A stretch of 64,000 bases of DNA, from the NCBI GenBank assembly GCA_023134715.1, contig JAGLUP010000003.1, positions 2,019 to 66,018 on the forward strand, written 5' to 3'. Each line of letters begins with the position of its first letter. Positions within the stretch are counted from its first letter, which is position 1. The notes beneath the pieces were generated by a model. The model worked only from the letters and a program-made list of their open reading frames with translations. It was not told the origin of the DNA and ran no database searches. The position numbers and the translations under genes were made by a program. Origin of the DNA: Candidatus Parcubacteria bacterium. Lineage in GTDB: Bacteria; Patescibacteriota; Minisyncoccia; Minisyncoccales; JAGLUP01. Shown piece after piece: positions 9,263-34,830 of the stretch.

Positions 9263-10066
9263 ATGATGAATATAAAACAAAAAGGGTTTACTATCGTAGA
9301 GCTTTTAGTTGTTCTTGCTATATTTGGAATTTTATCTGGTCTTGTTGTAGTAACACTTAAAAGCATGAAAGACGAAGCTCGGCTGAAAAAAGCAATGGAA
9401 TTTGCTCATACCGTGAGAGTTAGCTTGGGTTCTGACTTAGTCGGCGAATGGACTTTTGACGATTCCAGCGATTTAGGAAGAGATACCAGCGGTTATGAAA
9501 ACCATGCAACTGTTCACGGAACTACTCCAGTTGATGGAATCGTTAGGGGAGCTTTGAGTTTTAATGGAACCAGTGACCATATTGACTGTGGAAACAATGA
9601 GAGTTTATGCTCTAATGATAATTCATGGACTATAGAAGCGTGGTTTAACTGGGGCGGCAAAAGTGGAGAGAATATAATTTATAATAAAGAAAATTTATAT
9701 GAGGCAAGAGTTAATAATGGTTATTTTCAATATGCATGGCAGCCTCATTGGCATTGGGATGGAGGAACAGATTTTTCTGTAGATTCAAATAAGTGGCATC
9801 ATGCAGTAGTTGTTTATGATAAGTCGAGCCAATATGTTTATAAAGATGGAGAGCTTGTTTATACAAGGCCTCAAGAAGGGAATATAGGAAATAATACTAA
9901 TAAATTATTAATAGGCGCTCGCGGTCATACATCTCCTCGCAATTATTTTGATGGCGCAATCGATGAAGTGCGGATTTATAATCGGGCATTGACAACAGCG
10001 GAGATTCAAAAGTATTATGCCGAAGGCGCTGCTAAATATGGAATATGTCTTTTAGAAAAAAAATAA
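9263..10066 (+). CDS. type IV pilin-like protein with LamG/concanavalin-type lectin head
   Basis: Prepilin motif KGFTIVELLVVLAIFGIL. C-terminal LamG_3-like pattern (GALSFNGTSDHID..., WHHAVVVYD, FDGAIDEVRIYNRAL). Confidence 0.8.
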   Translation: MMNIKQKGFTIVELLVVLAIFGILSGLVVVTLKSMKDEARLKKAMEFAHTVRVSLGSDLVGEWTFDDSSDLGRDTSGYENHATVHGTTPVDGIVRGALSFNGTSDHIDCGNNESLCSNDNSWTIEAWFNWGGKSGENIIYNKENLYEARVNNGYFQYAWQPHWHWDGGTDFSVDSNKWHHAVVVYDKSSQYVYKDGELVYTRPQEGNIGNNTNKLLIGARGHTSPRNYFDGAIDEVRIYNRALTTAEIQKYYAEGAAKYGICLLEKK

Positions 10067-11700
10067 CAATTTTAATTATAGTTTTAACCTTGGGATTAGG
10101 GATAGTCGGCTATTGGGAGCATCAGAAAAATCTTTATTCAAAAGATATTTTAAAATTGGAAATTTTAGGCCCGGAAACAGCAGAAACAGGAGAAGAGATT
10201 GAATATACGGTAAAATATAAGAATAACGGAAATGTTCGATTAGAAGACGCTAAGCTTATTTTTGAATATCCAGAATATTCTTTAATCAAGCAAGGCGATT
10301 CATTAAGGGTAGAACAGGAATTAGACGATATTTATCCTGGGGAGGAAAAAACCTTTCACTTTGAATGTCGGCTTTTAGGGAAAGAGAAAGAGATGAAAAC
10401 TGCCAAGGCCTTTATTTTTTATCGTCCTAAAGATTTAAAAGCTCGATATGAGTCAAAAACAAGTTTTAGCACAAAGATTGAATTTATCCCTTTGACTTTT
10501 GAATTTGACCTTTCTTCTAAAGTTGACAGTATGAAAGAAATTTCTTTTGCTCTAAATTATTTTTCCAACATAGATTATTCCTTAACTGATTTAAGAGTTA
10601 AAATTGAATATCCTTCTGGATTTGAATTTTTAGAGAGTCAGCCTCAATCTTTAGAAAAAATAGAATGGGAAATTGGCTCTTTAAATAAAGCTGAAGGAGG
10701 AAGGATAAAAATTAAAGGAAAACTGCAAGGAGAAATAGGAGATCAAAAAACTTTTCGAGCGATTTTGGGCATTTGGCAGGAAGGAGAGTTTATCCTTTTA
10801 AAAGAGGCGGTTAAAACAGTAGAAATTATTGAACCCTCTTTATACATAAATCAGGAAATTAATGGTTCTTCTCAATATACTGCTGCTCCTGGCGATTTTT
10901 TGCATTATGAGATTTTCTTTAAAAATATTGGAGAAGAGGCGTTTGAGAAATTATTTTTGGTAGTAAAACTTGAAGGCAAGCCATTTGATTTAGAATCTTT
11001 AAAAACGTCAGAAGGGGAATATAAATCTGGAGATAATTCAATTATTTGGGATTGGAGAAAAGTTTCAAAACTTCGATTTTTGGACGCTCAAGAAGAGGGG
11101 GTAGTTGAATTTTGGGTGAACTTAAAAGAGGAATGGCAAGTGTCTGGACCCCAAGATAAAAACTCTTTTATTAAAAATACAGTTATTCTTTCTCAAACCA
11201 AAGAAGAATTTAAAACAAAAATCAATTCAAAAATAGAATTGACTCAAAAAGGTTATTTTGAGCAGGAATTTTGGGAAAATTCAGGAACAATTCCTCCAAA
11301 AGTTGGAGAAACAACTGCTTATACAATTTTGTGGCAGGCTAAGAATTTTTATAACGACGCAGAGAATGTAAAAGTAAAAGCTATTTTGCCTCAAGAAGTT
11401 AAATTAACCGGCGAAATTTTTCCAAAAGAATCAAAGCTTAGTTTTGATTTTAAATCCAGGGAGCTTGTTTGGGACATAGGAGATCTTAAAGCAGGTGAAG
11501 AAAATCCCGTGCTTGCCTTTCAAGTTGTCTTAACTCCAAGTTCTCAACAAAAAGGTCAGACACCGTCTCTTATTGGAGAAGCAAGAATTATTTGCGAAGA
11601 CCAGTGGACAGAGCAGATTTTAGAAAGCAATGCCGAAACTGTCAACACCACTTTACCGGATGATGAAACAGTTAGCGAAGAACAGGGAATAGTTCAATAG
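10045..11700 (+). CDS. membrane-anchored surface protein with repeated Ig-like (DUF11/CARDB-like) segments; function unknown
   Basis: 551 aa. N-terminal TM helix, repeated segments of type GEEIEYTVKYKNNGNV. Overlaps the preceding pilin gene by 22 nt. Confidence 0.55.
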   Translation: MSFRKKITILIIVLTLGLGIVGYWEHQKNLYSKDILKLEILGPETAETGEEIEYTVKYKNNGNVRLEDAKLIFEYPEYSLIKQGDSLRVEQELDDIYPGEEKTFHFECRLLGKEKEMKTAKAFIFYRPKDLKARYESKTSFSTKIEFIPLTFEFDLSSKVDSMKEISFALNYFSNIDYSLTDLRVKIEYPSGFEFLESQPQSLEKIEWEIGSLNKAEGGRIKIKGKLQGEIGDQKTFRAILGIWQEGEFILLKEAVKTVEIIEPSLYINQEINGSSQYTAAPGDFLHYEIFFKNIGEEAFEKLFLVVKLEGKPFDLESLKTSEGEYKSGDNSIIWDWRKVSKLRFLDAQEEGVVEFWVNLKEEWQVSGPQDKNSFIKNTVILSQTKEEFKTKINSKIELTQKGYFEQEFWENSGTIPPKVGETTAYTILWQAKNFYNDAENVKVKAILPQEVKLTGEIFPKESKLSFDFKSRELVWDIGDLKAGEENPVLAFQVVLTPSSQQKGQTPSLIGEARIICEDQWTEQILESNAETVNTTLPDDETVSEEQGIVQ

Positions 11701-11714
11701 AATTACTAATTTTC

Positions 11715-12159
11715 AATTTCTAATTTCTATTAAATCTTCAATGACTAAATTTTCAAACAGCAAGAACAAAGAATATGATTTAGAGGAAAGAACAGCGAAA
11801 TTTAGCGAAGATATAATAGAATTTATAAAGAGCATTAAGCGAGATGATATTAACAGAAATATTATTACACAATTAGCAAGAGCAGCAACCTCTGTTGGAG
11901 CAAATTGCTGCGAAGCAAATGCCTCAAGCTCAAAACGAGATTTTAGAAATAAGATATACATCTGTAAAAAGGAAACTAATGAAACAAAATACTGGCTTAG
12001 AATATTGGCTAAATATTACCCTGAGTCAAAAGAAAAAATAAGAGTTTTCTGGAAAGAAGCTCATGAATTTCATCTAATTTTTCAAAAAATCACCAACACG
12101 CTGGACAAGAAAAAAGTTTAGAAATTAAAAAATTAGACATTTAATAGAAATTAGAAATT
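11715..12159. mobile_element. IVS-like cassette: four-helix-bundle ORF bounded by perfect 21-bp inverted repeats built from AATTTCT heptamers
   Basis: 11715..11735 AATTTCTAATTTCTATTAAAT is the exact reverse complement of 12139..12159. Extra AGAAATT units extend to about 12173. Confidence 0.6.
11741..12121 (+). CDS. four-helix-bundle protein (23S rRNA intervening-sequence protein family)
   Basis: 126 aa. QLARAATSVGANCCEA, RDFRNKIYICKKETNETKYWL motifs typical of the family. Confidence 0.8.
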   Translation: MTKFSNSKNKEYDLEERTAKFSEDIIEFIKSIKRDDINRNIITQLARAATSVGANCCEANASSSKRDFRNKIYICKKETNETKYWLRILAKYYPESKEKIRVFWKEAHEFHLIFQKITNTLDKKKV

Positions 12160-13447: not shown

Positions 13448-14484
13448 ATAATCAAAAAGTATTAGACATTTCATGGGGAACGATTTTTAAGCTTTTTATA
13501 GCTATTGTTTGTTTTTATATTCTTTTTTTAATAAAAGACATTATTGTCTGGTTTCTTTTTGCTTTGATTATTTCAATTCTTTTTAATCCGGCAATAGATT
13601 TTTTACAAAGGAGAAGAATTCCGCGAGTAGTGAGCGTTGTTTTTATCTATTTATGTATCTTCGGCATATTAAGCTATTTAATTTTTTCCTTTCTTCCTTT
13701 ATTTATTTCGGAAATTGAAAATTTTTCTAAACTTCTTCCTCAATATTTTGAAAAAGCGTTTCCCTTTTTTCAAGGACTTGGAATTCAGGCGTTTCAAGAC
13801 ACGGAGAGCTTTGTTGGAATTTTAGGAGATGATTTGCAGGGAGTAGCCGCAAATATGTTTAGCGCCTTTTTCGCGATTTTTGGAGGAATTTTTTCAACGA
13901 TGTTTGTTATTACCATGGCTATTTTTCTTTCTTTAGAAGAAAAAGTCGTAGAAAAAACCTTGATTCTTTTTTTTCCAAAAGAATATGAGGAATATGCTTT
14001 AAATCTTTGGCCGAGATGCCAAAAAAAGGTAGGCGGTTGGTTTTTGACTAGGGTTATCGCCTGCTTGTTTGTGGGAGCATTCTCTTACCTTGCTTTTGCG
14101 CTTCTTAATACGGAATATCCTTTTTCCTTGGGTCTTTTAGCCGGAGTTCTTAATTTTATTCCCATAGTGGGGCCGATTATTACTAGTCTTTTGATTTTCT
14201 TTATTGTTGCATTGGATTCTTTTACTAAAGCGATATTTGCTTTGGTTGCTTTTACTTTGATTCAGCAAATTGAAAATAATATTTTGACCCCGATACTTTC
14301 TCAGAGATTTGTCGGACTTTCTCCGGTTTTAACTTTAGTGGCTCTGGCAGTTGGAGGAACGCTTTGGGGTATTTTGGGAGCGATTTTAGTTATTCCCTTA
14401 GTCGGAATATTGTTTGAATTTACTAAAGATTTTTTACAGAAGAGAAAAAAAGAATTTGAGGAAGAGAAAGCGCCAATATTGTGA
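13444..14484 (+). CDS. AI-2E family transporter (PerM/UPF0118-like)
   Basis: 346 aa polytopic membrane protein. Family-typical IPIVGP and QQIENNILTP segments. Confidence 0.7.
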   Translation: MNNQKVLDISWGTIFKLFIAIVCFYILFLIKDIIVWFLFALIISILFNPAIDFLQRRRIPRVVSVVFIYLCIFGILSYLIFSFLPLFISEIENFSKLLPQYFEKAFPFFQGLGIQAFQDTESFVGILGDDLQGVAANMFSAFFAIFGGIFSTMFVITMAIFLSLEEKVVEKTLILFFPKEYEEYALNLWPRCQKKVGGWFLTRVIACLFVGAFSYLAFALLNTEYPFSLGLLAGVLNFIPIVGPIITSLLIFFIVALDSFTKAIFALVAFTLIQQIENNILTPILSQRFVGLSPVLTLVALAVGGTLWGILGAILVIPLVGILFEFTKDFLQKRKKEFEEEKAPIL

Positions 14485-14549
14485 ATAACTTTCTTGTTAA
14501 TAATTTTAAAAATGATATTATAAAATAATAATAAGTAATTATAAAAAAT

Positions 14550-15074
14550 ATGTTTAAAATTATTTTAGATTTTGTAAAAAAATATCTTCTTCCTCTCGTC
14601 ATTATTGTTTTAGTAATTTTTGTTTTGTTATTAATGAATCATATCTCTGTTTTAAACAAGGAAATAGCTTCTTTGTATCAAAAATCTTTACCCGAGACAA
14701 TTAAACCGCAGGAATCTGGAGCTGGAAATGTAGGAGAAATTATGGTTGAAGATGAAGAAACCGGCGAACAAGCTCCTTTAGTTTCTCCTATTATGCCTCC
14801 GGAAATTTTTAGCACTACTGGAATTATTATTGAAGTAAAAACAGACAGAGTAATTATCAAAGGCAAAGGCACTAATTTTGCCGATGGCAAAGCCAGGGTC
14901 TTAACAGTTGTTTTTACTAACGAGACAATAACTTTTGACAAAACCTCTACTTTTCGCCAAACAGGCGCCATAGGATTAAAGCAGCTTGAATCAGCAATGG
15001 AAGTTTTAATAGGAAGTTCAGAAAATATTCGGGGAAAAACTGAATTTAAAGCAAAAACACTTAAAATCCTTTAA
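14550..15074 (+). CDS. hypothetical membrane-anchored protein
   Basis: 174 aa with a single N-terminal TM helix. No recognised domain. Confidence 0.5.
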   Translation: MFKIILDFVKKYLLPLVIIVLVIFVLLLMNHISVLNKEIASLYQKSLPETIKPQESGAGNVGEIMVEDEETGEQAPLVSPIMPPEIFSTTGIIIEVKTDRVIIKGKGTNFADGKARVLTVVFTNETITFDKTSTFRQTGAIGLKQLESAMEVLIGSSENIRGKTEFKAKTLKIL

Positions 15075-15085
15075 TTATTAAATTC

Positions 15086-15146
15086 CAGTTTCTAAATTTT
15101 AAATTCTAAATATAATTTTGGATTTTGGATTTTGGATTTTGGATTT
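15086..15146 (+). repeat. heptamer arrays TTCTAAA/TTTTAAA/TTCTAAA then (TTTTGGA)x4
   Basis: (TTTTGGA)x4 at 15116..15143 is the reverse complement of the TCCAAAA array inside argS. The track ORF start at 15125 lies in this repeat and is probably spurious. Confidence 0.8.
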
Positions 15147-15154
15147 ATGTTATT

Positions 15155-16714
15155 ATGCTTAAATCAAAAAATCTTATTTCAATATTTACTGTTGTTTGCG
15201 CGACCTTGTTTGTCGCGGCAGTAATTTTCGCTTGGAACGAACCCTCGTCTGTTCCTCCTGGAGATAATGTTCCTACTCCTCTTAACACAGGAACCACTGC
15301 TCAAGTAAAAAACGCGAGATTATCCGCTACTGAGTTTTACGACGCTAATGACTCTAAATGCTACATTGATCCAGATGGAGAGAGCGTTCTCGGCAAACAT
15401 TCTAAATTGATTTTTCCTGGTAGTGAAAATTACTGTAAGCCCGATAGCAATTCTTCTTTTGGTGTCGTCATCAGGGTTCATGCCTTAGAAGATATCAGCA
15501 AATTTGACGCAGTAAGCGTAGAGTCTATGAATGCTGTTATTGCTTACAGAGCAGATGCTGATAATATAGATAGACGTCCGGCAATAGGAATAGCGACAGA
15601 AGATATTCCTTCCGGTACTTACGGCCGCGTTTTAATATCGGGTGAGGCGAGCAAGAATAACTGGTTTCCGTTGCCGACAAATCCATCGAGGCAGGTTTAT
15701 TTATCCACAACTCCTGGTCAGCTTACCGTTACTCCTCCCACATCTGCTGACGCTGTGATTCAAGTAATGGGTATTGCAATCGGTCGTCACGCTTTGTTTT
15801 TAAACCCATCGCTTCAATATGAAACAAGCGGCGGCGGAGGCGGAGATGGTAATAATTATGTTACGGGTATTTCATTCTCGGGCGACACTACTAAAACTCT
15901 TACTCTTAATAGAAGCGGTTTAAGCAATCTTACTGCCAATTTTACAGATCTTACTGGCGGAGCCGGCGGCGACGGCAACGATTATGTTGATAGTGTTAAT
16001 TTCAATACAGGCAATGGATTTTTTACTCTTGGTCGTACCGGAACATTATCTGACTTAAGCATAGATTTAGATGGAAGGTATTTGACAAGTTATTCCGAAA
16101 CTGATCCTCAGGTAGGAACTTTAACTAACGGTAAATGGTGTACCACTAACGGTTCCGTAGTGAATTGTACCTCAGATGCTCCTGGCGCCAGCAGTAGCGG
16201 CGATATTAGATTTCCTGACGGATACGAGGGAACCGCCAAAAATATAATTCTTGCTACAGGGAGTTATACCGTGCCTGCGGGAAAGACATTGTATATTACT
16301 ACAATGTTCAACCATCATGGTCTTGGAAACAGTCTTAAGATAGGAGGTGAATTTTATTACGTGATACCACACTATGTTTCTCTTTCTTCGCCTTTAATAG
16401 TCCCAGCAGGCAGTGTTCTAACTAGCAGTTGGGATTCATTAAACATTACGGGCATTGAAGTAAGCTCGGGAGTAACCGCCAAAAATGTAATTCTTGCTAC
16501 AGGAAGCTATACCGTGCCTGCGGGAAAGACATTGTATATTACTACAATGTTCAACCATAAGGATCTTCCGAACTATCTTAAGATAGGAGGTGAATTTTAT
16601 TACGGGATTCCAGCGTCAGACTGTGTTTCTCTTTCTTCGCCTTTAATAGTCCCAGCAGGCAGTGTTCTAACTAGCAGTTGGGATTCATTAAACATTACGG
16701 GCTATGAAAAGTAA
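15155..16714 (+). CDS. membrane-anchored, fibre-like surface protein with internal tandem repeats; function unknown
   Basis: Start moved to in-frame ATG MLKSKN. TM helix, then AWNEPSSVPPGDNVPTPLNTG. Gly-rich GDGNxYV repeats and two ~80-aa C-terminal repeats. Visibly GC-richer than its surroundings. Confidence 0.6.
   Translation: MLKSKNLISIFTVVCATLFVAAVIFAWNEPSSVPPGDNVPTPLNTGTTAQVKNARLSATEFYDANDSKCYIDPDGESVLGKHSKLIFPGSENYCKPDSNSSFGVVIRVHALEDISKFDAVSVESMNAVIAYRADADNIDRRPAIGIATEDIPSGTYGRVLISGEASKNNWFPLPTNPSRQVYLSTTPGQLTVTPPTSADAVIQVMGIAIGRHALFLNPSLQYETSGGGGGDGNNYVTGISFSGDTTKTLTLNRSGLSNLTANFTDLTGGAGGDGNDYVDSVNFNTGNGFFTLGRTGTLSDLSIDLDGRYLTSYSETDPQVGTLTNGKWCTTNGSVVNCTSDAPGASSSGDIRFPDGYEGTAKNIILATGSYTVPAGKTLYITTMFNHHGLGNSLKIGGEFYYVIPHYVSLSSPLIVPAGSVLTSSWDSLNITGIEVSSGVTAKNVILATGSYTVPAGKTLYITTMFNHKDLPNYLKIGGEFYYGIPASDCVSLSSPLIVPAGSVLTSSWDSLNITGYEK
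16232..16702 (+). repeat. tandem duplication (period 243 nt) inside the surface-protein gene with two short hypervariable patches
   Basis: 16232..16452 vs 16475..16702 are near-identical. They differ at HHGLGNS/HKDLPNY and VIPHY/GIPASDC. Confidence 0.85.
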
Positions 16715-16810
16715 GTAGAAAATAGCGTTAACTCTATTTTAAAATGGTTTGAAATGGCTTAAAATCAGAGGTTAAATCTAAAAGAAAAAATATGAAATTA
16801 GAATTTTATT

Positions 16811-18280
16811 ATGAAATGTTTTAAAAGAATAAATTATCTAATTATTTTTTTAATAGTTTTTGCGTTTTTTGCTGTGGGGATGGCAAATGCTGATGTTTCT
16901 GATAATGTTTCGGGTTGGGCTTGGTCAGAAAATATTGGCTGGATTAGCTTTAATTGCGTTAATGAGAACTGGTGCGCCACCTCAAGTTATGGTGTAGATA
17001 TTGATGAAACCACGGGCGTGTTTTTTGGTTATGCATGGGCTGGAGGTGGAGAAGATGCTGACGGCACGCCAAAACCAACTATTGGCTGGATAGCTTTTGC
17101 TGATTATGATGGAAGTGGCACAGAAGGTGATGCCGGAGATAATAATGCTGGTTTTCCTTGTTTTCCAAATTGCGAAGCTAAAATTGATACTATCACTAAT
17201 GAAGTTTCTGGATGGGCAAGAGCTTTGGCTCATGGCGACGGCTGGGACGGCTGGATAAAATTAAGAAAAGATCCTACTGATGCAGGCGCAGATTATGGAG
17301 TATCTTTAAATATAAGCTCAGGCGAATTAGAAGGGTTTGCCTGGGGAGGCGGAACGGTAGTAGATTCAATTAGTTTTAATCATCTTAATTGTGATCCAGA
17401 CAATGACGGATTTTCTAATGGAGTTGGAGCTTGTCCTATCGCTGGCACTCCTGTTTCAAATTATAAAGTAACAACTACTGCTTTTTTTGCGCTTCCTAAT
17501 TCACCGCCAACAATTACTGACATGAACGATCCTAATGGTTCTCAGATTTATTGTGATATTGGGTCCGGATTGAGTCATGTAAGCTTTGACTGGAAATATA
17601 ACGATGCTGACGGAGATGATGAGCTGAAATATGACCTTATAATTAATGATATAAATAATGTAAATGATACAAGTCCAGAAATTAATATCACTATAAACAG
17701 TCCCGCTTGTATTGACTTAGATCCTGGTTTAGCCATCTCTTGTATAAACACTTCAGGAGCTGTTATTGGGACTCAATTGGACTACAATAAAACTTATTAC
17801 TGGTGGGCAAAGGTTTATGATGACCAGGGCAATGATTCTGGCTGGGCGGCAGGATTATCTTTTGATACACCTGATCATCCTTGGCCTTGGCCTGATTTTA
17901 CTCACAGTCCTCAAAATCCAGGCGTTGGAGAAATAGTAATTTTTACCGATGAATCTCAATGTTGGACTACCGGCATCCCTGCCTCTGTTCCCTGTAAAAA
18001 TTTAGGCAGCACTTCTTATGGGTGGGATTTTGATTATAATTATAATCCAGGCATAGATTCTACAATAAAAGGAGATGCTACCACATCTTACCCAATTACT
18101 CAATCATATGATGTAAGATTGCATGTATCTGATGAATTAGGAGCTTGTATTGGCACAGGCGATAGTCCAGTTGGAGCGGAAATTCTTTTGCCTGAATGGA
18201 AGGAAACATCGCCTATTATTTTGATTAAAATTTTTTTAGCTGGAATTTTTAATTATTTCAATGAATTAATTTCTTTGTAG
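16811..18280 (+). CDS. secreted/anchored protein with GWAWSENIGWISFN-type repeats and a C-terminal PKD-like domain
   Basis: 489 aa. Signal/TM N-terminus, four copies of an aromatic GW-rich repeat, PKD-like segment (YGWDFD...YDVRLHVSD) and a hydrophobic C-terminus. Confidence 0.6.
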   Translation: MKCFKRINYLIIFLIVFAFFAVGMANADVSDNVSGWAWSENIGWISFNCVNENWCATSSYGVDIDETTGVFFGYAWAGGGEDADGTPKPTIGWIAFADYDGSGTEGDAGDNNAGFPCFPNCEAKIDTITNEVSGWARALAHGDGWDGWIKLRKDPTDAGADYGVSLNISSGELEGFAWGGGTVVDSISFNHLNCDPDNDGFSNGVGACPIAGTPVSNYKVTTTAFFALPNSPPTITDMNDPNGSQIYCDIGSGLSHVSFDWKYNDADGDDELKYDLIINDINNVNDTSPEINITINSPACIDLDPGLAISCINTSGAVIGTQLDYNKTYYWWAKVYDDQGNDSGWAAGLSFDTPDHPWPWPDFTHSPQNPGVGEIVIFTDESQCWTTGIPASVPCKNLGSTSYGWDFDYNYNPGIDSTIKGDATTSYPITQSYDVRLHVSDELGACIGTGDSPVGAEILLPEWKETSPIILIKIFLAGIFNYFNELISL

Positions 18281-19978: not shown

Positions 19979-19985
19979 TCAAATG

Positions 19986-20057
19986 AGCGGGTAACGGGAA
20001 TCGAACCCGTATTGCAACTTTGGAAAAGTCGCGTAATAACCTTTATACCATACCCGC
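19986..20057 (-). tRNA. tRNA-Gly (anticodon TCC)
   Basis: Hand-folded: acceptor GCGGGTA/TACCCGC, anticodon stem CGACT/AGTTG, loop TTTCCAA, T-loop TTCGATT. Confidence 0.8.
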
Positions 20058-20060
20058 GTG

Positions 20061-20131
20061 TGGACCCAGCGAGAGTCGAACTCGCGATTCCTCTATGCCA
20101 TAGAGGTGTTTTACCACTATACTATGGGCCC
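20061..20131 (-). tRNA. tRNA-Ala (anticodon GGC)
   Basis: Hand-folded: acceptor GGGCCCA/TGGGTCC with the G3:U70 Ala identity pair, anticodon stem CCTCT/AGAGG, loop ATGGCAT. Confidence 0.8.
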
Positions 20132-20139
20132 CTTTTTTG

Positions 20140-20211
20140 TACCCCTGACGGGAATCGAACCCATATCTAGAGTTTAGGAAACTCTTACTTTATCCGTTAA
20201 GCTACAGGGGC
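20140..20211 (-). tRNA. tRNA-Arg (anticodon CCT)
   Basis: Hand-folded: acceptor GCCCCTG/CAGGGGT (G1:U72), anticodon stem AGAGT/ACTCT, loop TTCCTAA, T-loop TTCGATT. Confidence 0.75.
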
Positions 20212-20279
20212 AGATTTTAATTTTAAATTAACATATTTTTTTGTTGTTGACAATAAAATCTTATGGTATTATAGATTTA

Positions 20280-21407
20280 ATGACTAAAGAATTATCAGTT
20301 GTAGATATAGTAAAAAAAGTTTGTCCGGCAGTAATAACTATTATTGTCTCCAAGAATCTTCCCAAGATAGAAGGTTTTTATATGTTTCCGTTCGGAGGGC
20401 AAAAGCTTGTTATGCCAAAAATTTCCCGCTCTGCGGGATCCGCCTCGGGCGGAAAAATTGAAAAAGAAATGATAAAAATAGGAGGCGGTTCTGGCTTTAT
20501 TGTTTCTTCGGACGGTTTTGTTATCACCAGCCAGCATGTAGTTGGAGACCCTAAAGCAGAATATACAGTTGTATTAAGTCCAAAAAAGAAATATCCTGCC
20601 AAGGTTTTGGCCAGAGACCCAATAAATGATATTGCGATTTTAAAAATTCAGGGAAAGAATTTTCCTTATTTAGAATTAGGAGATTTAGACAAGATTGAAT
20701 TAGGAGAGTCGGTAATTGCGGTGGGAAACGCTTTGGGAGAATTTGACGATACGGTGAGCACAGGAGTTGTTTCCGGCTTAAGCCGTTATATTACCGCTAC
20801 TGATCCGGTTGCTTTTCAGGCAGAACGTTTAAAGGGCTTAATTCAAACAGACGCGGCGATAAATCCGGGAAATTCAGGCGGTCCGTTAATAAATATGGAG
20901 GGAAGAGTTATAGGAGTTAATACTGCCACAGTAATGGGCGCTCAGAATATTGGATTTGCCATTCCTATAAATTACGTTAAAGAGGATTTAGAAGAAATTA
21001 AAAAATATGGCCGGCTAAGAACGCCGTTTTTGGGATTAAAATATGTTTTAATTTCTAAGGAAATGGCAGAAAAAAATAAATTATCAGTAGATTATGGCGC
21101 TTTAGTAATCCGAGAAAGCTTGGGCGAGTCGCCGATAGTTAAAGGAAGCACTGCTGATAAAGCGGGAATCAAGGAATTTGATATAATTTTAGAATGTGAA
21201 GGGAAAAAAATTACTTTGAAAAATCCTTTAAGAAATATTTTACAGGAATTTGAAATTAACAAGATAATTGCATTAAAAATTTTAAGACCTGCCCGCAATG
21301 CTTCGCCAGCCCGACAGCCTGACGGCAGTCATGGCGGCGGGCATAGCGATGCAGGCGGGGGTATGCAAGAAAAAATAATTAAAGTTAAACTTGAAGAAAA
21401 AAAATAG
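20280..21407 (+). CDS. htrA: HtrA/DegP-family serine protease (trypsin-like domain + PDZ) with GC-rich C-terminal insert
   Basis: GSGFIVSSDGFVITSQHVV, DIAILKI, GNSGGPLIN catalytic-triad contexts plus a PDZ region. I prefer the ATG at 20280 (MTKELSVV) to the track TTG at 20241. Confidence 0.85.
   Translation: MTKELSVVDIVKKVCPAVITIIVSKNLPKIEGFYMFPFGGQKLVMPKISRSAGSASGGKIEKEMIKIGGGSGFIVSSDGFVITSQHVVGDPKAEYTVVLSPKKKYPAKVLARDPINDIAILKIQGKNFPYLELGDLDKIELGESVIAVGNALGEFDDTVSTGVVSGLSRYITATDPVAFQAERLKGLIQTDAAINPGNSGGPLINMEGRVIGVNTATVMGAQNIGFAIPINYVKEDLEEIKKYGRLRTPFLGLKYVLISKEMAEKNKLSVDYGALVIRESLGESPIVKGSTADKAGIKEFDIILECEGKKITLKNPLRNILQEFEINKIIALKILRPARNASPARQPDGSHGGGHSDAGGGMQEKIIKVKLEEKK
21288..21362. 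repeat. GC-rich imperfect palindromic insert inside the htrA 3' region
   Basis: CCTGC-c-CGCAATGC ... GCATAGCG-at-GCAGG with an inner CGCCA/TGGCG pair. Encodes PARNASPARQPDGSHGGGHSDAGGG. Confidence 0.6.
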
Positions 21408-21417
21408 AACATTAAAA

Positions 21418-22152
21418 ATGGAAAATACAATAAAACAATGGATAGAGGCAAAAGGAAAATTACATTTTTCTTTGATAGACCCGGACAAGCAAACACCTGA
21501 CGAGGCGGGAGAAATGGCTGATTTTTGCGTGTCTTGCGGAACTGACGCTATAATGGTGGGCGGCTCTACTATTGATTTTCAAAAATCTCAAGAAACAACA
21601 ATAGCCATAAAAGATGCTGTGAATGTTCCTGTGGTTTTATTTCCCAGTTCCGCGGAAGCAATAAATGAGTTTGCTGATTACATATTCTTTATGAAGCTGA
21701 TGAATTCTAAAAAAAGGCAGTTTATTATGGAGGAACAATTAAGAGGAGCTCCGCTTGTTAAAAAATTTGGACTTATACCAATAAGTATGGGTTATGTCTT
21801 AATAGGCACAAGCGAGAGAAAAACAGCGGTAGAGCAGGTTAGCGGAAATTTAGATATAATAGAGAAAGATGATGTTGAAAAAGCTCTAAAATATGCCTTG
21901 ACTACTCAATATTTTGGCATGAGCTGTGTTTATTTGGAGGCAGGTTCGGGCGCGGAAAAACCGGTTTCTAATAAAATGATTAGAATGGTTAAAAAAGAGA
22001 TAGATATTCCTCTAATTGTAGGAGGAGGGATTAGGAATGCGGCAACAGCAAGAAAAAAGATAAAATCCGGCGCTGATATTATTGTCACAGGAACAGTCAT
22101 TGAGAAAGACAAGGAAAGATTAAAAGAGATTATAAGCGTAATAAAAAAATAA
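21418..22152 (+). CDS. geranylgeranylglyceryl phosphate synthase family (GGGPS/PcrB)
   Basis: LIDPDK, GTDAIMVGGS, YLEAGSGA, GGGIR, GADIIVTG motifs. Start moved to the ATG after the htrA stop (MENTIKQW). Confidence 0.8.
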   Translation: MENTIKQWIEAKGKLHFSLIDPDKQTPDEAGEMADFCVSCGTDAIMVGGSTIDFQKSQETTIAIKDAVNVPVVLFPSSAEAINEFADYIFFMKLMNSKKRQFIMEEQLRGAPLVKKFGLIPISMGYVLIGTSERKTAVEQVSGNLDIIEKDDVEKALKYALTTQYFGMSCVYLEAGSGAEKPVSNKMIRMVKKEIDIPLIVGGGIRNAATARKKIKSGADIIVTGTVIEKDKERLKEIISVIKK

Positions 22153-22186
22153 AAGCCCAAAATTAAATGGGCATTTTTTTATAGAA

Positions 22187-23017
22187 ATGAAAAAACAAAT
22201 ACAAACAATAAAAGTGTTTATTGAATTAATCAGGCCTTTAAATTGTTTAATGGTTTCAGCTGGGGTAATTATTGGCTCTATTGCTGGTATTGGTATGGAT
22301 TTTTCTTTTGCTTTGTTGATTTTTTTAGCTGTTTTATCTGCGGCAATAACTAACGCGGGAGGAAACGCTATGAATGATTATTTTGATAGGGAAACAGATA
22401 TTATGACTCATCCCAAAAGGCCTATTCCCTCTAAAAGATTGACTCCTAAATCTGTTTTAATGTTTGCTATTGCTTGTTTTATTTTAGCAATAATTTTTTC
22501 AGTGCGCATTAATTTAATTTGTTTTATTTTAGTAATAATCAATACGGCCATGCTCATTTTTTATGAAAGATATTTGAAAAATAAGGGATTAATAGGCAAC
22601 ATTGCTGTTGCTTATTTAACCGGCTCTATTTTTCTTTTTGGAGGAGCCGTTGTAGGAAGAATTACAACTTCTGCGATATTGGCTATTTTAGCTTTTTTTG
22701 CCACATTAGGTAGAGAAATAATAAAAGATGTTGAAGATATTAGCGGCGACAGAAAAGAAAGAGAGACCATGCCAATGAAAATAGGCGAAAAGAATTCAAT
22801 AATTATAGCTAATTTCTGTTTAATCACGGCTGTTCTTTTTTCTTTTCTGCCTTTAGTCGCGAATATTTTAGGAAAAGGATATTTAATAGTGGTTGCGGCT
22901 GACTCGGTCTTTATTTATTCAATGTTTATTGCTTTTAAAAACCCGCATTCTGCTCAAAAAGCAATTAAATTAGGAATGATTTTAGCTTTAATTTCTTTTT
23001 TCTTCGGAAGCATTTGA
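22187..23017 (+). CDS. UbiA-family prenyltransferase, DGGGP synthase-like
   Basis: 276 aa polytopic protein. GGNAMNDYFDRETD...HPKRPIPS first Asp-rich motif and a second motif region KDVEDISGD. Confidence 0.7.
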   Translation: MKKQIQTIKVFIELIRPLNCLMVSAGVIIGSIAGIGMDFSFALLIFLAVLSAAITNAGGNAMNDYFDRETDIMTHPKRPIPSKRLTPKSVLMFAIACFILAIIFSVRINLICFILVIINTAMLIFYERYLKNKGLIGNIAVAYLTGSIFLFGGAVVGRITTSAILAILAFFATLGREIIKDVEDISGDRKERETMPMKIGEKNSIIIANFCLITAVLFSFLPLVANILGKGYLIVVAADSVFIYSMFIAFKNPHSAQKAIKLGMILALISFFFGSI

Positions 23018-23073: not shown

Positions 23074-24411
23074 GTGATTAAAATGAATGAAACTGATAAA
23101 AAAACGGGACAAGGAACGGAAGATATAAAAGATGATTGGAGGGGATTGGTTGCTGAACGTTGTGGAGGAGAGAATTTTGATGCTCCAGGAGAAGGATATT
23201 CTTTTAGCAAAATTTTAGCTGAAGAAAGGGAATTAGAAAAAGGAAATATTAAAGGAGATCCAAGCTCAGCTTTAATAAAGCTTAGCGTAGCTGATCCGGT
23301 TTGGAAAATGCAAAAAGAAGCTATGGAAGCGGCAATGCTTTTTTATAAGGAATCTCTTAACGCTACTCGATATACAGACTTAACTGGTATTTTTGATGGC
23401 AACCCTTTTCTTAACAAAACAAATGAAGAGATTTGTCGGTTAATAGTTGAGCGTAAGTATGCGGGAATTTCTGATAGTTTCAGCGTGGATTGGGTGCAGT
23501 ATTCGCCAGGTAGTATAAAGATGGCCTTGTCAACATATATTTCGACTGCTTTTTTTGACAAAGACACATTGATAATTTTTCCCACGCCAGGATATCCAGT
23601 GATTATATCGCCGATGAATCGGAATGGAGCAATGGTTGAAGAAGTGGCGATGAATCAAACTAAAAAAGGATGGGAAATTCCTTTTAATTATATTGGATCG
23701 CGTGAAAAAGTTTTTCTATATTTTAATGTACCGCATAATCCGACAGGAATGACTTATTCCAGGGAGGAGTTGAAGGAAATAGTGGATTGGGCCATTAAGC
23801 GTAATGTAAGGCTTGTCGTTGACGAAGCGTATGATGACATCAGATATGATGATTCAGTTAGTATTTTAGAGATACCAGGATGGGAACAATGTTGTATTGT
23901 TCTTAAAAGCGTGTCTAAGGGATACAATGCTACTGGGCTTCGGTTTGGTATTATTATAGCTAAACCAACAGCAATTAAAGCGTTGCGCAAGGCAATGGAT
24001 GTGAAGGATTCAGGACTTTTTGGACCGTCAATTGCGGCTGGACTAGAGTGTTCACGCCATCCTGAGTGGACGATAAAAACAAAGCGGGACTATAGAAAGC
24101 TTCATCAGTTATTAGCTAATGGCTTAAAGAAAGCTGGATTTGAGGATGCAGGAATACCTGGAGCTGGATTATGTCAGCTCACAAAAGCGCCTCGGGCTGT
24201 TGACGGGCATTGTTTTGAATCTTTAGTCGAGTGTGTCCAGTATTTCAGGGAAAATTTGCAGATTTCAGTAATGCATTATGAAGTGAACAGTGATTGGTTT
24301 TTCCGATGGGCAGTGACTTTTAGGCCAATGCCGGAATATGGACTTCCAACAGAGGAATCAGTGATAGAGGAGGCTGTTTCTCGGCTTCAGCAAGCAGAAT
24401 TAGTATTTTAA
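23074..24411 (+). CDS. class I/II PLP-dependent aminotransferase
   Basis: 445 aa. NVPHNPTG, VDEAYDD, SVSKGYNATGLRFG (PLP lysine context). GC-richer than its neighbours. Confidence 0.75.
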   Translation: MIKMNETDKKTGQGTEDIKDDWRGLVAERCGGENFDAPGEGYSFSKILAEERELEKGNIKGDPSSALIKLSVADPVWKMQKEAMEAAMLFYKESLNATRYTDLTGIFDGNPFLNKTNEEICRLIVERKYAGISDSFSVDWVQYSPGSIKMALSTYISTAFFDKDTLIIFPTPGYPVIISPMNRNGAMVEEVAMNQTKKGWEIPFNYIGSREKVFLYFNVPHNPTGMTYSREELKEIVDWAIKRNVRLVVDEAYDDIRYDDSVSILEIPGWEQCCIVLKSVSKGYNATGLRFGIIIAKPTAIKALRKAMDVKDSGLFGPSIAAGLECSRHPEWTIKTKRDYRKLHQLLANGLKKAGFEDAGIPGAGLCQLTKAPRAVDGHCFESLVECVQYFRENLQISVMHYEVNSDWFFRWAVTFRPMPEYGLPTEESVIEEAVSRLQQAELVF

Positions 24412-24563: not shown

Positions 24564-26879
24564 ATGCAAGAATATAATCCACAAAAAATAGAGGAAAAAT
24601 GGCAGAAAAGATGGGCAAAGGATAAAATATTTAAAACAAAAGATGGCTCTAAAAATCCAAAATTTTATGTTTTAGATATGTTTCCCTATCCTTCGGGCGC
24701 AGGCCTTCATGTCGGACATCCTAAAGGATATATTGCCACAGACATTGTTTCCAGAATGAAAAGAATGCAGGGCTTTGAGGTTTTACATCCAATGGGCTGG
24801 GACGGTTTTGGCTTGCCGGCTGAAAATTACGCGCTTAAGAATAAAATTCATCCTAAAAGCGCGGTAAAAGAAAATATTAAAAAATTTAAAGCCCAGTTAA
24901 ATAAAATTGGTTTTGATTATGACTGGTCAAGAGAAATAAATACCACGGAGCCAAATTATTATAAATGGACGCAATGGATTTTTTTACAAATGTTTAAAAA
25001 AGGACTGGCTTATGAATCTTATGAGCCGATTAATTGGTGTCCGAGTTGTAAAACAGGTCTTGCAAACGAAGATTTAGAACATGGAAAATGCGAACGATGC
25101 GGAAGTGATATTGAACAAAAGCCAATGAGGCAGTGGGTTTTAAAAATAACAGATTATGCTGAGCGCTTGCTTGAAGATTTAAAACTGCTTGATTGGGAAG
25201 AGCAAATTTTAGAAATGCAGAAAAACTGGATTGGGAAAAGTTGCGGCGCAGATGTTGATTTTAAGATAGATAAGCGCGATGAAATAATAAAAGTTTTTAC
25301 TACTCGTCCTGATACTTTATTTGGCGCGACTTTTATGGTTCTTTCGCCAGAGCATTCATCAGTGGAAGAAATAACAACTAATGTCCAGAAATCTGAAGTA
25401 AAAAAATATCAGGAGCAAGCGCGAAAAAAAAGCGATTTAGAGAGAACTGATTTAGAAAAAGAAAAAACAGGAGTTTTTACCGGAGCGTACGCAATTAATC
25501 CAGTAAATAATGAAAAAATTCCTATTTGGATTGCTGATTATGTTTTAATGTCTTATGGCTATGGCGCGATTATGGCAGTTCCAGCGCACGATGAAAGAGA
25601 TTTTGAATTCGCGAAAAAATTTAAACTTCCTATAGTTCAAATTGATTTAGAAGATAAAGAAAAAATGATTAAATGGCTGGAGAAAAATAAAAATGGCAGG
25701 AGAGCGGTGAATTATAAGCTAAAGGACTGGGTTTTTTCAAGACAAAGATATTGGGGCGAGCCAATTCCAATTATTAAATGCGAAAAGTGCGGAAATGTGG
25801 CAGTACCAGAAAAAGAACTTCCCTTAAAGCTTCCTGAAGTAAAACATTATGAGCCAACTGGAACAGGCGAGTCCCCTCTGGCAAATATTAAAGAATGGGT
25901 TAATACAACCTGTCCAAAGTGCAAAAAACGAGCGAAAAGAGAAACTAACACAATGCCTCAGTGGGCTGGAAGTTGTTGGTATTATTTAAGGTATATTGAC
26001 CCTGAAAACAAGAAAGAATTAGTTGATAAAAATAAGGAAAAATACTGGATGAAACCTAAAGGGGTTGACCTTTATGTCGGAGGCGCGGAGCACGCTACCC
26101 GCCATCTTATTTACGCAAGGTTTTGGCATAAGTTTTTACAGGACATAGGCGTTGTTTCAACTTCAGAGCCGTTTCATAGATTGTTTCATGTTGGTTTGAT
26201 TGCGGCTGAAGATGGTCGGAAAATGAGCAAGCGATGGAATAATGTTATTAACCCTGATGATGTGATTCAAGAATATGGCGCAGATAGCTTGCGGCTTTAT
26301 GAAATGTTTATGGGTGGTTTTTCAGAGGGTACTGCTTGGAATACAAAAGGACTGGTTGGGACAACAAGGTTTTTAAAAAAAGTTTGGCAGATTCAATATA
26401 AGCCTAAAAAGCAAAGTTCTAAATCTGATAGACTGCTTCATCAAACTATAAAAAAGGTTACTGAAGACATTGAGAATTTTAAATTTAATACAGCGATTTC
26501 TCAAATGATGATTTTAACAAATGAAATGGAAAAACAAAAAGAAATTGACATTAATCATTATTTATTATTTCTTATTATTTTAGCGCCTTTTGCTCCGCAT
26601 ATTTCAGAAGAGCTTTGGGAAAGCTTAAAGAATAAAAAAAGTATTTTTTTGGAAAAATGGCCTGAATATAATCCTAAACTTATAAAAGAGGAAACCTTTA
26701 ATTTAATTATTCAAATAAATGGAAAGGTTCGAGATAAAATAGAAGTTGAGGCAGGTATTTCAGAAGAAAAAGCTGAAGAATTGGCCTTGTCTCAAGAAAA
26801 GATTAAAAAATGGCTGGAAAATAAAAAAATCAAAAAAATTATCTCTGTGGAAAACAAATTAGTAAATATTGTAGTATAA
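24564..26879 (+). CDS. leuS: leucine--tRNA ligase
   Basis: 771 aa. [12 protein letters not shown] (HIGH), [32 protein letters not shown] (KMSKS). Confidence 0.95.
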
Positions 26880-33273: not shown

Positions 33274-34688
33274 TTTATATTAGAAATTTTGAATTTCATA
33301 TTTTTTTTATTTCGTGTTTTAGTTGAATAATATTGAGTTAATTTTTTCGCCTTATTTAAGGAGCTTAGCTCCCGGAGCTTAGCTCCTTGGTAATTACGGA
33401 TTAAGGCTAGAGGACCGGGATAATCTTTCATTTCAATTAAAATATCGTGGGGTTTTGCGAGTTTTTTGATTTTTTTATTTTCTTCATTATTTCGCCCAAC
33501 GATAATTTTTACCCAAATTTTTTCGCGTAGTTTTGCGTTTCTGGTTTTGTGTCTGTTTTGCGGTTTTAACCAGAAATGCCGTCCTACTTTTAGTAATTCA
33601 ATATCATTACCCTGACATTGAGGATAAATTTTCAACAATTTTTTAAATCGTTTGCTAAATTCCGGGTCAGTCAAGAGACAGCCGCCAGAAGGAGATGGGT
33701 ATTGTTTGACTTTGAATTTTTTAGCCAAAGCAATTTGTTTTTTTCTTGAACGACCGGAGATATTAAAAGGTTTGGCAGAGAGCGGTCTTATCAGTAACCC
33801 TTCAAGAGATGATTTTTTTTCAGTGAATTCAAGAGATTTTTTGTTTTGCGTCATTGGCCTTTGCCCTAAAACTTCACCTGTGGCAATAAATCCATATTTT
33901 TCTTTTTCCATTATTTCCTTGGCTTTTTTTAACATTAGAATGCGGCAGTCAAGGCATGGGTTCATTTCTTTTCCATAACCATATTCTGGCGATTTCATTA
34001 CTTTTAAATGTTCTTTAGAAATATCAATTATTTTTAATTTAATTCCTAAATTTTTTGCCGATTTTTTCGCTTCTTTAGCGCCAAAAAAATAACTTTTAAA
34101 AGTTATCCCTGTTATTTTTATTCCCTGTTTTTGTAGAATTTTTGCGACTAAAATAGAATCCAGCCCTCCAGAGAACAAGACAAGAGCCGTAGAAGATTTT
34201 ATGAAATAAATTTTTCGCAAGATAGCTTCAAATTCTTTTAAATTTTTTACGCAATAATCAATTTTTTTATTGTTTGGTTTTTGGAAATATCTTCCTTCGC
34301 CTCGGTTCATTCTTATAGTTATTAAATTAGGAAAGAATTTTTTGGTTTCAAGCAGAGCTTGAGGATTGTCATCAATAAATATAGCTGTCTCTTGTTTCTT
34401 GAGAATTTTTTTCATTCCCTCCATCTTTGCAATATTTGGAGTGACAACTATTTTTTTAAAATAATGAGCTATTTTTGAATTTTGAATTTTCTTTTTTTGG
34501 AATTTTTCTTCTCCGAAAGATAAAATAAAAAGTTCAAAATTTTTCTTTACCTTTCTTAGAAGAGGAATAACATCAGGATATAAAAATTGGCAAGATTGAT
34601 TTAGCCCTTTTTCTAAATTTTTTTTTATAACTTTGCGGAATTTTTCTGTTTCAAATAGAGTATGGTCAAAATCAAAAATAATTTTCAT
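33270..34688 (-). CDS. fusion of HAD-like hydrolase domain and PP-loop ATPase (ThiI/MnmA-like tRNA thiolation family)
   Basis: 472 aa. DFDHTLF (HAD motif I), LFSGGLDS (PP-loop), NPCLDCR, TGEVLGQRPMTQ. Confidence 0.65.
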   Translation of the reverse strand: MKIIFDFDHTLFETEKFRKVIKKNLEKGLNQSCQFLYPDVIPLLRKVKKNFELFILSFGEEKFQKKKIQNSKIAHYFKKIVVTPNIAKMEGMKKILKKQETAIFIDDNPQALLETKKFFPNLITIRMNRGEGRYFQKPNNKKIDYCVKNLKEFEAILRKIYFIKSSTALVLFSGGLDSILVAKILQKQGIKITGITFKSYFFGAKEAKKSAKNLGIKLKIIDISKEHLKVMKSPEYGYGKEMNPCLDCRILMLKKAKEIMEKEKYGFIATGEVLGQRPMTQNKKSLEFTEKKSSLEGLLIRPLSAKPFNISGRSRKKQIALAKKFKVKQYPSPSGGCLLTDPEFSKRFKKLLKIYPQCQGNDIELLKVGRHFWLKPQNRHKTRNAKLREKIWVKIIVGRNNEENKKIKKLAKPHDILIEMKDYPGPLALIRNYQGAKLRELSSLNKAKKLTQYYSTKTRNKKNMKFKISNIK

Positions 34689-34721
34689 TTTTTAAATTTA
34701 TAGATAAAAAACGCAGAAAAT

Positions 34722-34792: not shown

Positions 34793-34830
34793 CGTTTTCA
34801 AAGTTTTGGCGATTTAGAATCTACGCGCGT

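Follow-up and report, generated by a model that had tools for sequence, protein, structure and literature searches.

Adjacent Genes for an Archaeal-type Geranylgeranylglyceryl Phosphate Synthase and a DGGGPS-type UbiA Prenyltransferase in a Candidatus Parcubacteria Bacterium

The window analysed here is a stretch of 64,000 nucleotides from a Candidatus Parcubacteria bacterium (GenBank assembly GCA_023134715.1, contig JAGLUP010000003.1), corresponding to positions 209361-273360 of a 391,237-bp scaffold (ENA ERZ23498525, BioSample SAMN18200499). It carries two adjacent genes of archaeal type on the forward strand. The first (21418-22152, 244 amino acid residues) encodes a protein which by its sequence is a group II geranylgeranylglyceryl phosphate synthase (GGGPS), similar to the archaeal IIa enzymes. 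The second (22187-23017, 276 residues) encodes a polytopic membrane protein which by the same kind of comparison is a UbiA prenyltransferase of the digeranylgeranylglyceryl phosphate synthase (DGGGPS) type. A gene for a geranylgeranyl reductase (GGR) is present further along the same scaffold. Taking all the evidence together, it is probable that these genes encode working archaeal-type enzymes for both ether-bond steps and for the saturation of the chains, and that they were received in an ancient transfer from archaea and then inherited vertically under purifying selection.

Identification of the GGGPS and UbiA proteins

An earlier note on this DNA, made from the letters alone, had taken the first gene for an archaeal-type GGGPS rather than a Bacillus PcrB, and the second for a DGGGPS-like protein. 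The open reading frame listing places both genes on the forward strand where the note had put them, and the motifs quoted there are all present: LIDPDK, GTDAIMVGGS, YLEAGSGA, GGGIR and GADIIVTG in the first protein and NDYFDRETD...RPIPS in the second. The scores are too high for chance matches: the first protein gives 170.6 bits on the Pfam family PF01884 (PcrB, threshold 23.9) and 218.5 bits on the NCBIfam GGGP equivalog TIGR01769 (cutoff 161.55), and the second scores 132.2 bits on PF01040 (UbiA, threshold 34.2). At its maximum the first frame extends over 21391-22152 with a TTG start. The start was set at ATG 21418 (MENTIKQW...) from the alignment of homologues and the public gene call, and this is also the start chosen in the earlier note.

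The first protein is also above the cutoff of NF003198 (278.9 against 247 bits). The model of heptaprenylglyceryl phosphate (HepGP) synthase, NF003197, gives only 66.1 bits against a cutoff of 260, which places the protein outside the PcrB class. Comparison with known structures leads to the same assignment. The two archaeal group IIa structures included in this comparison give 179.5 bits with 45% identity (PDB code 6nke) and 172.6 bits with 41% identity (4mm1). The group IIb enzyme of Flavobacterium (4jej) gives 130.3 bits and the group I enzyme AfGGGPS 48 bits, and the PcrB structures are matched at 52.5 (3vzx), 52.2 (1viz), 32.7 (3w01) and about 29 bits (4nae/4naf). The view of the first gene as an archaeal-type GGGPS is therefore supported by both kinds of score.

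The residue criteria for GGGPS were taken from a 2022 review (PMC9385802). All three phosphate-binding loops are present, namely A175-G-S-G178 (βα6), G202-G-G-I-R206 (βα7) and V223-T-G-T226 (βα8), the last with the group II residue Thr226. Tyr126 and the motif Y172-L-E174 are present as well. In the alignment of relatives the Tyr and Gly/Ser columns are invariant, and the column of Glu174 contains Asp in two sequences. From the position of the motif, these Tyr and Tyr-x-Glu residues probably correspond to Y124, Y165 and E167 of AfGGGPS. The numbering given in the review for MtGGGPS (Y134/Y178/E180) differs from that of the 4mm1 chain (Y130/Y172/E174), and the equivalence of motifs was used instead. 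Ile82, a small aliphatic residue, is aligned with the position proposed as the chain-length limiter of group II (Mt V86, Fj I90). An aromatic or His anchor on helix α5' was not found: Mt W141 is approximately aligned with Gln140, in a region rich in gaps, and W, Y, F and H are all missing from residues 130-146. Such an anchor is needed for hexamers and is typical of most group II enzymes, but does not define the group (PMC9385802). Because no aromatic or His residue is found near the W141 position, the protein is predicted to be a dimer rather than a hexamer, like the Thermoplasmatales and bacterial enzymes.

For the second protein, the best three NCBIfam models are all of the DGGGPS type (NF009521, 265.7 bits; NF009523, 210.5; NF009522, 182.3). 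The models of other UbiA clades give 33 bits for MenA (cutoffs 264-277), 41 for UbiA (275), 45 for CyoE (210), 85 for ChlG (313) and 62 for BchG (212), and none of these cutoffs is reached. The structure of MjDGGGPS (6m31) is matched at 155.6 bits with 38% identity, residues 6-275 against residues 6-280. The next structure is a chlorophyll synthase at 46 bits, and no quinone-type UbiA structure was found at E <= 0.001. Eight residues shown or proposed to take part in catalysis or in positioning the substrate lie in the MjDGGGPS motifs N-x3-D-x3-D, Y-x5-K and D-x2-D-x3-D. In the alignment, N62, D66, D70, Y125, K130, D180, D183 and D187 of MjDGGGPS correspond to N63, D67, D71, Y126, K131, D181, D184 and D188 of the window protein. 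A crude hydropathy scan gives about eight hydrophobic segments, about nine transmembrane segments being expected for a polytopic DGGGPS. The earlier DGGGPS-like assignment is in good agreement with these results, and a placement of the first protein with PcrB and the second with quinone or other UbiA clades is not borne out by the model and structure scores.

Geranylgeranyl reductase

The scaffold was also read beyond the window, about 8 kb to the left and about 10 kb to the right (18 kb), bringing the total to 82 kb or about 21% of the scaffold. The GGR gene was found in this added part (L095:14619-15797, equivalent to window positions 66921-68099; 392 residues). It is located 2.9 kb past the right end of the window and 43.9 kb downstream of the GGGPS-UbiA pair. 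The protein scores 89.3 bits on PF22578 and 225.9 bits on TIGR02032 (cutoff 158.8), and it matches the digeranylgeranylglycerophospholipid reductase of T. acidophilum (3oz2) over its full length (residues 7-389) with 237.7 bits. The FAD-binding sequence VVGAGPAGS (GxGxxG), the GDAAG motif and the detent motif Y-x-W-x-F, found in GGYAWVFPKG, are intact. The models of other reductases, BchP/ChlP (129 bits) and MenJ (67 bits), score lower than the digeranylgeranylglycerophospholipid reductase model. PAP2, CDP-alcohol phosphatidyltransferase, Pls and Fab genes were not seen in the 82 kb.

An orthologue with 63% identity is found in Parcubacteria DG_74_2. The other relatives, at 50-52% identity, all belong to Methanocellales, Methanosarcinales or Syntropharchaeia, and one further match at 52% is in an archaeal context. 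The earlier note had suggested that this bacterium may be able to make or remodel ether-linked isoprenoid lipids. The presence of GGR as a third gene of the pathway on the same scaffold strengthens this potential, as far as it can be judged from sequence.

Authenticity of the locus and selection

The GGGPS gene is preceded by a gene for HtrA (20241-21407), and the UbiA gene is followed by genes for a class I/II aminotransferase (23083-24411) and leucyl-tRNA synthetase (LeuRS, 24564-26879). This locus, HtrA-GGGPS-UbiA-...-LeuRS, recurs in eight contig records from different samples. The locus of the window itself was recovered in an independent Logan assembly. An orthologue with 71% identity (L003) has the order HtrA-GGGPS-UbiA-(one variable gene)-LeuRS-...-FIST-Topo I-RelA in four independent JGI and ENA assemblies. 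The GC and GC3 values of the GGGPS, UbiA and GGR genes are within the range of the housekeeping genes of the host.

The ratios dN/dS against the L003 orthologues, calculated by the Nei-Gojobori method, are about 0.18 for GGGPS and about 0.27 for UbiA, compared with 0.13 for LeuRS and 0.20 for the FIST protein. Both genes are under purifying selection, like the neighbouring housekeeping genes. The syntenic recurrence of the locus in independent assemblies, its host-like composition and this selection together argue against contamination and also against a relic.

The bacterial context assumed in the earlier note was confirmed. A Pfam survey of essentially every open reading frame of at least 110 residues in the window found RecO, RNase Y, FtsA, FtsZ, RelA/SpoT, Pth, LepB (signal peptidase I), ComEC, type-IV-pilin-like proteins and NrdD. 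In the identical-protein records of NCBI both proteins of the pair are labelled Candidatus Parcubacteria bacterium.

Relatives and phylogeny

The closest relatives of the GGGPS are those of DG_74_2 (80% identity) and of two syntenic bacterial contexts, P0003 (71%) and P0005 (65%), followed by Altiarchaeales (58-61%) and some Thermoplasmata (55-56%). In an alignment search of a species-representative genome collection, archaeal titles were found on 78 of the best 80 GGGPS loci among at least 600 matches. Parcubacteria are absent among the matches listed, a result which is uninformative on the frequency of the gene in the candidate phyla radiation (CPR). A single-protein search of the GTDB species-representative genomes found no relative, so that the genome of the window is not one of these representatives. 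The relatives of the UbiA protein are at 87%, 74% (DG_74_2) and 65% identity, followed by a tier at 48-54%. The three members of this tier whose context was checked (L009/L010, L011/L012 and L098) are Parcubacteria. A relative at 47% identity (L013, GCA_041890195.1) is on an archaeal contig with ribosomal protein S8e and SRP19, and there too UbiA is followed by GGGPS. This order is common in Thermoplasmata, Methanomassiliicoccales and DHVE2.

The pair was found in at least seven context-verified Parcubacteria lineages or places, in two arrangements. In the window the UbiA gene begins 34 nucleotides past the GGGPS gene, and adjacency is kept in DG_74_2, in the P0003 lineage, in the operons of the second arrangement (L009 type) and in many archaea.

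Neighbour-joining trees were built with 200 bootstrap replicates in nine combinations of trimming and distance correction. The Parcubacteria GGGPS of the window type form a clade with 84-94% bootstrap and those of the L009 type form another with 80-92%, and the monophyly of all Parcubacteria GGGPS has 0% support. A grouping of the window type with all Altiarchaeota, to the exclusion of a set made of the L009 type and the other named archaeal groups, is supported at 98-100%. The UbiA proteins behave differently, as the monophyly of all Parcubacteria members has 63-86% support, and 70-90% when only context-verified members are taken. The phylogeny which the earlier note had called for thus gives the GGGPS an archaeal affinity, with Altiarchaeota, and places the UbiA protein in one Parcubacteria clade. 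True FCB (Fibrobacteres-Chlorobi-Bacteroidetes) and TACK (Thaumarchaeota-Aigarchaeota-Crenarchaeota-Korarchaeota) references are not among the sequences of these trees. The NCBIfam subfamily models do not separate the GGGPS of the window type, the L009 type, Altiarchaeales and L074.

The last of these, a contig titled Bacteroidaceae, was considered as an FCB reference and dropped, since its GGGPS resembles the archaeal IIa enzymes (212 bits for 6nke, 140 bits for 4jej). An archaeal IIa-like GGGPS is also found on contig L063, titled Syntrophomonadaceae. The two contigs may be mis-binned archaeal contigs or may represent further transfers. On a contig of 3.3 kb (L097:258-2292), the GGGPS P0004 with 62% identity is sister to the window-type clade. 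About 640 bp downstream there is an IS200-like Y1 transposase gene, a hint of a mobile context.

The lineage closest to the window by housekeeping genes (HtrA 90%, LeuRS 84%) has a GGGPS gene between HtrA and LeuRS (L007:10001-10738; also L008). No UbiA gene is found within 10 kb of it, and within the clade this GGGPS has diverged furthest (65%, dN 0.243). The divergence may be due to a constraint that was relaxed once the partner gene had been lost or relocated.

The second arrangement and the history of the genes

In the L009-type Parcubacteria (L009/L010, L011/L012 and L098) the UbiA gene comes first and overlaps the GGGPS gene by 4 bp. Their contigs share neighbours with the window: Topo I, Pth, LepB, HisRS, CofD, GlmS and a ThiI-like gene. 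The UbiA proteins of these operons belong to the same Parcubacteria clade as that of the window, with 48-53% identity. In contrast, the gene order is reversed and the GGGPS is of another lineage, with 46% identity, which is never monophyletic with the window type. In its βα8 loop it has Asn where the window GGGPS has Thr. The position of the L009-type operon, between CofD and the ThiI-like gene, is empty in the window (34688-34831).

The simplest reading is that an ancestor acquired an operon of UbiA followed by GGGPS from an archaeon, and that later, in the lineage of the window, the GGGPS would have been replaced by a gene of Altiarchaeota type, located at a different position between HtrA and LeuRS. 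Directly downstream of the replacement, the UbiA gene would then have come to lie. We infer both this scenario and the direction of transfer from the distribution of the genes. That GGGPS and UbiA are neighbours once more, following this exchange, suggests selection on the two-step pathway. By sequence similarity, the three proteins appear to have separate histories: an Altiarchaeota-type GGGPS, a single Parcubacteria clade of UbiA, and a GGR nearest to those of Methanocellales and Methanosarcinales.

Several further genes were observed near the L009-type operon (L009:6060-7325, 11274-11780 and 14285-14965; also in L011 and L098). They encode GlmU, PAP2 and a CDP-alcohol phosphatidyltransferase, and HAD genes are present too. 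The GlmU is of the archaeal bifunctional type (TIGR03992, 299 against a cutoff of 292), and the PAP2 protein is undecaprenyl-diphosphatase-like. For the transferase the archaetidylinositol phosphate synthase model is the best (116.5 bits, cutoff 180), the bacterial phosphatidylinositol phosphate synthase giving 60. Homologues of this PAP2 protein and this transferase were not found in the window or its flanks.

Hairpin between the two genes

A scan for terminators found, in the 34-nucleotide spacer between the GGGPS and UbiA genes, a hairpin on the forward strand (22155-22182), of the form GCCCA-N8-UGGGC followed by a run of U. Its folding energy is -8.8 kcal/mol (z = -2.0). The orthologous spacer of the L003 lineage (L003:4566-4595) has an identical loop, a longer stem and a compensatory change from G-C to A-U; its z value is -3.8, and none of 200 shuffled sequences folds as well. 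In the sister lineages the 4-bp overlap of the two genes is found in place of this spacer. The hairpin would be terminator-like or act as an attenuator, and together with the U-run it may reduce expression of the membrane enzyme relative to that of the soluble GGGPS.

Comparison with known systems

That bacteria can carry both genes is not new, as the earlier note had said. Pairs of GGGPS and DGGGPS are established for the FCB group (PMC7852524; Coleman et al. 2019). Villanueva et al. 2020 (ISME J, PMC7852524) described GGGPS and DGGGPS, together with GGR, from Ca. Cloacimonetes and from further bacteria of this group. Both genes are also noted by them in "one genome of Ca. Parcubacteria", which is not analysed further, and they state that co-localisation of the genes within bacteria seemed restricted to Cloacimonetes. 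Outside Cloacimonetes, adjacency is now found at the window locus, in DG_74_2 (consecutive genes AMJ49_06075 and AMJ49_06070) and in the L009-type operons. The Cloacimonetes enzymes yielded archaeal-type ether phospholipids in E. coli, although Cloacimonetes are without glycerol-1-phosphate (G1P) dehydrogenase and CDP-archaeol synthase (CarS). Presumably the bacterial CdsA and PgsA step in, and some activity with glycerol-3-phosphate (G3P) is shown by GGGPS (PMC7852524).

The window shares with Cloacimonetes and the FCB group the adjacent GGGPS and DGGGPS genes, a euryarchaeal-like GGR, and the lack of detected CarS and G1P dehydrogenase, in its case within the 82 kb. There are also differences. 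The window GGGPS is IIa-like (180 bits to Thermoplasma against 130 to Flavobacterium) and is nested with Altiarchaeota, not in the FCB/TACK-affiliated clade. Its gene precedes that of UbiA with the hairpin between them, and the host is a CPR bacterium. The FCB enzymes have been tested biochemically, while those of Parcubacteria are known here from their sequences. The archaeal enzymes (4mm1 of M. thermautotrophicus, 6nke and 6jo3 of Thermoplasma, 6m31 and 3oz2) show full-length homology to the window proteins (41-45% identity, 38% identity and 237.7 bits for GGGPS, UbiA and GGR), and the catalytic and substrate motifs are kept. The full-length matches to solved structures have E values of 1e-44 to 1e-69. 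They differ from the window case in that the host here is bacterial, an anchor of the Mt W141 type is lacking, and G1P dehydrogenase, geranylgeranyl diphosphate (GGPP) synthase and CarS were not seen in the region examined. Bacillus PcrB (group Ib) has the TIM-barrel superfamily, the G1P-prenyl ether chemistry and the bacterial host in common with the window protein. However, it is a group I enzyme, it is without a partner DGGGPS, and it makes a C35 monoether lipid.

What appears to be new is the adjacency of the genes in Parcubacteria, their conservation under purifying selection in several lineages, and the accompanying GGR. Full-text literature searches found no paper treating the Parcubacteria pair in detail. 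By similarity and neighbour-joining trees, the origin of the set would be independent of the FCB clade and mosaic.

Proposed function and alternative explanations

For the three genes we propose the following pathway. A soluble, Mg-dependent and probably dimeric GGGPS would join C20 geranylgeranyl diphosphate to glycerol phosphate, which is likely to be G1P by homology, with G3P as a possible substrate by promiscuity. The membrane-bound DGGGPS would form the second ether bond to give digeranylgeranylglyceryl phosphate, and GGR would then saturate the double bonds of the chains. G1P, GGPP and the activation of the head group may depend on genes in other parts of the genome, or may be obtained from a host. 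Horizontal transfer probably brought the three genes from archaea, at a time remote enough for a host-like composition to develop, and they would then have been inherited vertically within the Parcubacteria clade.

Several observations weigh against this proposal. The G1P dehydrogenase, CDP-archaeol synthase and GGPP synthase, for which the earlier note had recommended a search, were not found in the 82 kb, and the same holds for another polyprenyl synthase, CdsA and a head-group enzyme. Neither the UbiA protein nor GGR is an exact functional equivalent by the NCBI criteria. GGR is far under the equivalog cutoffs (255 against 780 bits), its best model of this kind being the Thermoplasmatales digeranylgeranylglycerophospholipid reductase. 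The UbiA protein is under the curated DGGGPS cutoffs (NF009521, 265.7 against 296; NF009522, 182.3 against 353; NF009512, 60 against 278), which are strict, and it is also below the cutoff of NF009523. The shortfall on NF009521 is uninformative, because the archaeal UbiA protein of L013, located next to a GGGPS gene, also fails this cutoff (282.1 against 296). The GGRs of the Methanosarcina type require ferredoxin, and no ferredoxin gene follows the GGR gene; the gap of 328 bp after it is also without a ferredoxin partner or an RNA gene. The chain-length limiter of group II is poorly defined, which makes the C20 specificity of the GGGPS less secure. Finally, the trees are of the neighbour-joining type only, with deep nodes that are not resolved.

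One alternative explanation is that the enzymes are active and their product is not a bulk membrane lipid. It would instead be a minor specialised isoprenoid glycerol ether, such as a glycan or envelope anchor or a carrier, or a by-product formed when lipids or isoprenoids taken from an archaeal host or from necromass are recycled, or the result of a lipid breakdown step working in reverse. We regard this as rather unlikely, though deserving serious attention. It is consistent with the absence of CarS, CdsA and the precursor genes from the region examined and with the product of PcrB in B. subtilis, a minor lipid according to PMC9179154. A catabolic role for bacterial GGGPS and DGGGPS was raised by Coleman et al., and Parcubacteria are generally reported to be without lipid synthesis and dependent on partners. 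The surroundings of the sister operon, too, include genes for sugar-nucleotide (archaeal-type GlmU), HAD and undecaprenyl-diphosphatase-like PAP2 proteins. However, this neighbourhood may reflect genome-wide synteny and not shared function, and it also contains the archaetidylinositol-phosphate-synthase-like gene. A structural lipid fits better with the retention of all three core enzymes, including a reductase giving saturated chains of archaeol type, and the renewed adjacency of GGGPS and UbiA points in the same direction.

The other explanations concern the nature of the genes themselves. One could suppose that they are left over from an old transfer and are decaying or without function, and the closest lineage (L007), with its most diverged GGGPS and no adjacent UbiA gene, hints at loss or relaxation of the module. 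Against this, the reading frames are full-length, the catalytic residues are all kept, dN/dS is close to the values for LeuRS and for the FIST protein, and conservation of the genes extends across lineages with identities as low as about 50%, which makes decay very improbable. A PcrB-type HepGP synthase paired with a UbiA protein of quinone, haem or chlorophyll type, unrelated to archaeal lipids, would belong to the same Pfam superfamilies (PF01884 and PF01040), and the automatic NCBI name [quoted passage not shown] is ambiguous on this point. This explanation is effectively refuted by the scores: 66 against 260 on the HepGP model, 29-52 for the PcrB structures against 172-180 for the archaeal ones, and 33-85 for MenA, UbiA, CyoE and ChlG against 265.7 for DGGGPS. 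Mis-assembly or mis-binning of an archaeal pair has a negligible chance of being correct. The nearest relatives outside the clade are indeed archaeal, and L063 and L074 may themselves be mis-binned. However, the pair stands among bacterial genes of the same strand on a scaffold of 391 kb, the same junctions were obtained independently from ENA, JGI, Logan and NCBI data of several samples, the GC and GC3 values are host-like, and the flanking genes co-diverge with the pair. The reading of the genes as an archaeal-type ether-lipid module of a Parcubacteria clade is thus retained.

A further step would be to suppose that this clade makes its membrane, wholly or in part, from saturated diethers of archaeal type, with three enzymes captured piecemeal from different archaea (the GGGPS of Altiarchaeota type, a DGGGPS specific to CPR and a GGR of methanogen type) and with isoprenoid and glycerol-phosphate precursors from archaeal hosts. 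CPR bacteria in general cannot make fatty-acid lipids. We consider this proposal speculative and unlikely as it stands. If it is true, natural bacteria with archaeal or hybrid membranes would exist, and the presence of this gene set in a genome would mark a symbiosis between CPR bacteria and archaea.

The lipid divide between bacteria and archaea is central to early cell evolution, and the natural organisms which cross it are few and uncultured. The core module of archaeal ether-lipid synthesis is not confined to the FCB superphylum; it appears to have been independently acquired, long kept and, through the replacement of GGGPS, partly re-acquired in a clade of ultra-small CPR bacteria, whose lipids are believed to depend on partners. 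If the enzymes are active, the viability of mixed membranes could be tested in a second case that is phylogenetically independent, archaeal partners would be indicated for some Parcubacteria, and biomarkers of archaeol type in anoxic sediments need not all be archaeal.

Other features of the window

The aminotransferase gene downstream of UbiA was considered as a member of the module, but this was rejected because an unknown protein of 140 residues takes its place in the L003 lineage. Three tRNA genes, Gly-TCC, Ala-GGC and Arg-CCT, are located at 19985-20211 on the reverse strand between RNase Y and HtrA, in a gene run which is otherwise co-directional. Just upstream of RNase Y, three successive proteins of 174, 529 and 489 residues (14550-18280, forward strand) have no Pfam match at E <= 1e-5. 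An isoleucyl-tRNA synthetase-like protein of 1153 residues (5063-8524, forward strand) has a complete histidine-phosphatase domain (His_Phos_1) inserted at residues 489-655, which splits the halves of the catalytic domain.

Genes of aromatic amino acid metabolism are found in this supposedly reduced CPR genome (window 3596-4327 and 40010-41020; L094:459-5163). The set consists of indole-3-glycerol phosphate synthase, a TrpD-like phosphoribosyltransferase, chorismate mutase, prephenate dehydrogenase/dehydratase and 5-enolpyruvylshikimate-3-phosphate synthase. The genes of the first two are separate, and no other trp genes are in view. Several paralogous pilin-like proteins (window 9263-10066, 45374-46150 and 60052-61173; L095:12513-13316) have an N-terminal methylation motif together with a domain of the concanavalin/LamG or Fib_succ_major type, and could serve as adhesins by which the cell attaches to a partner.

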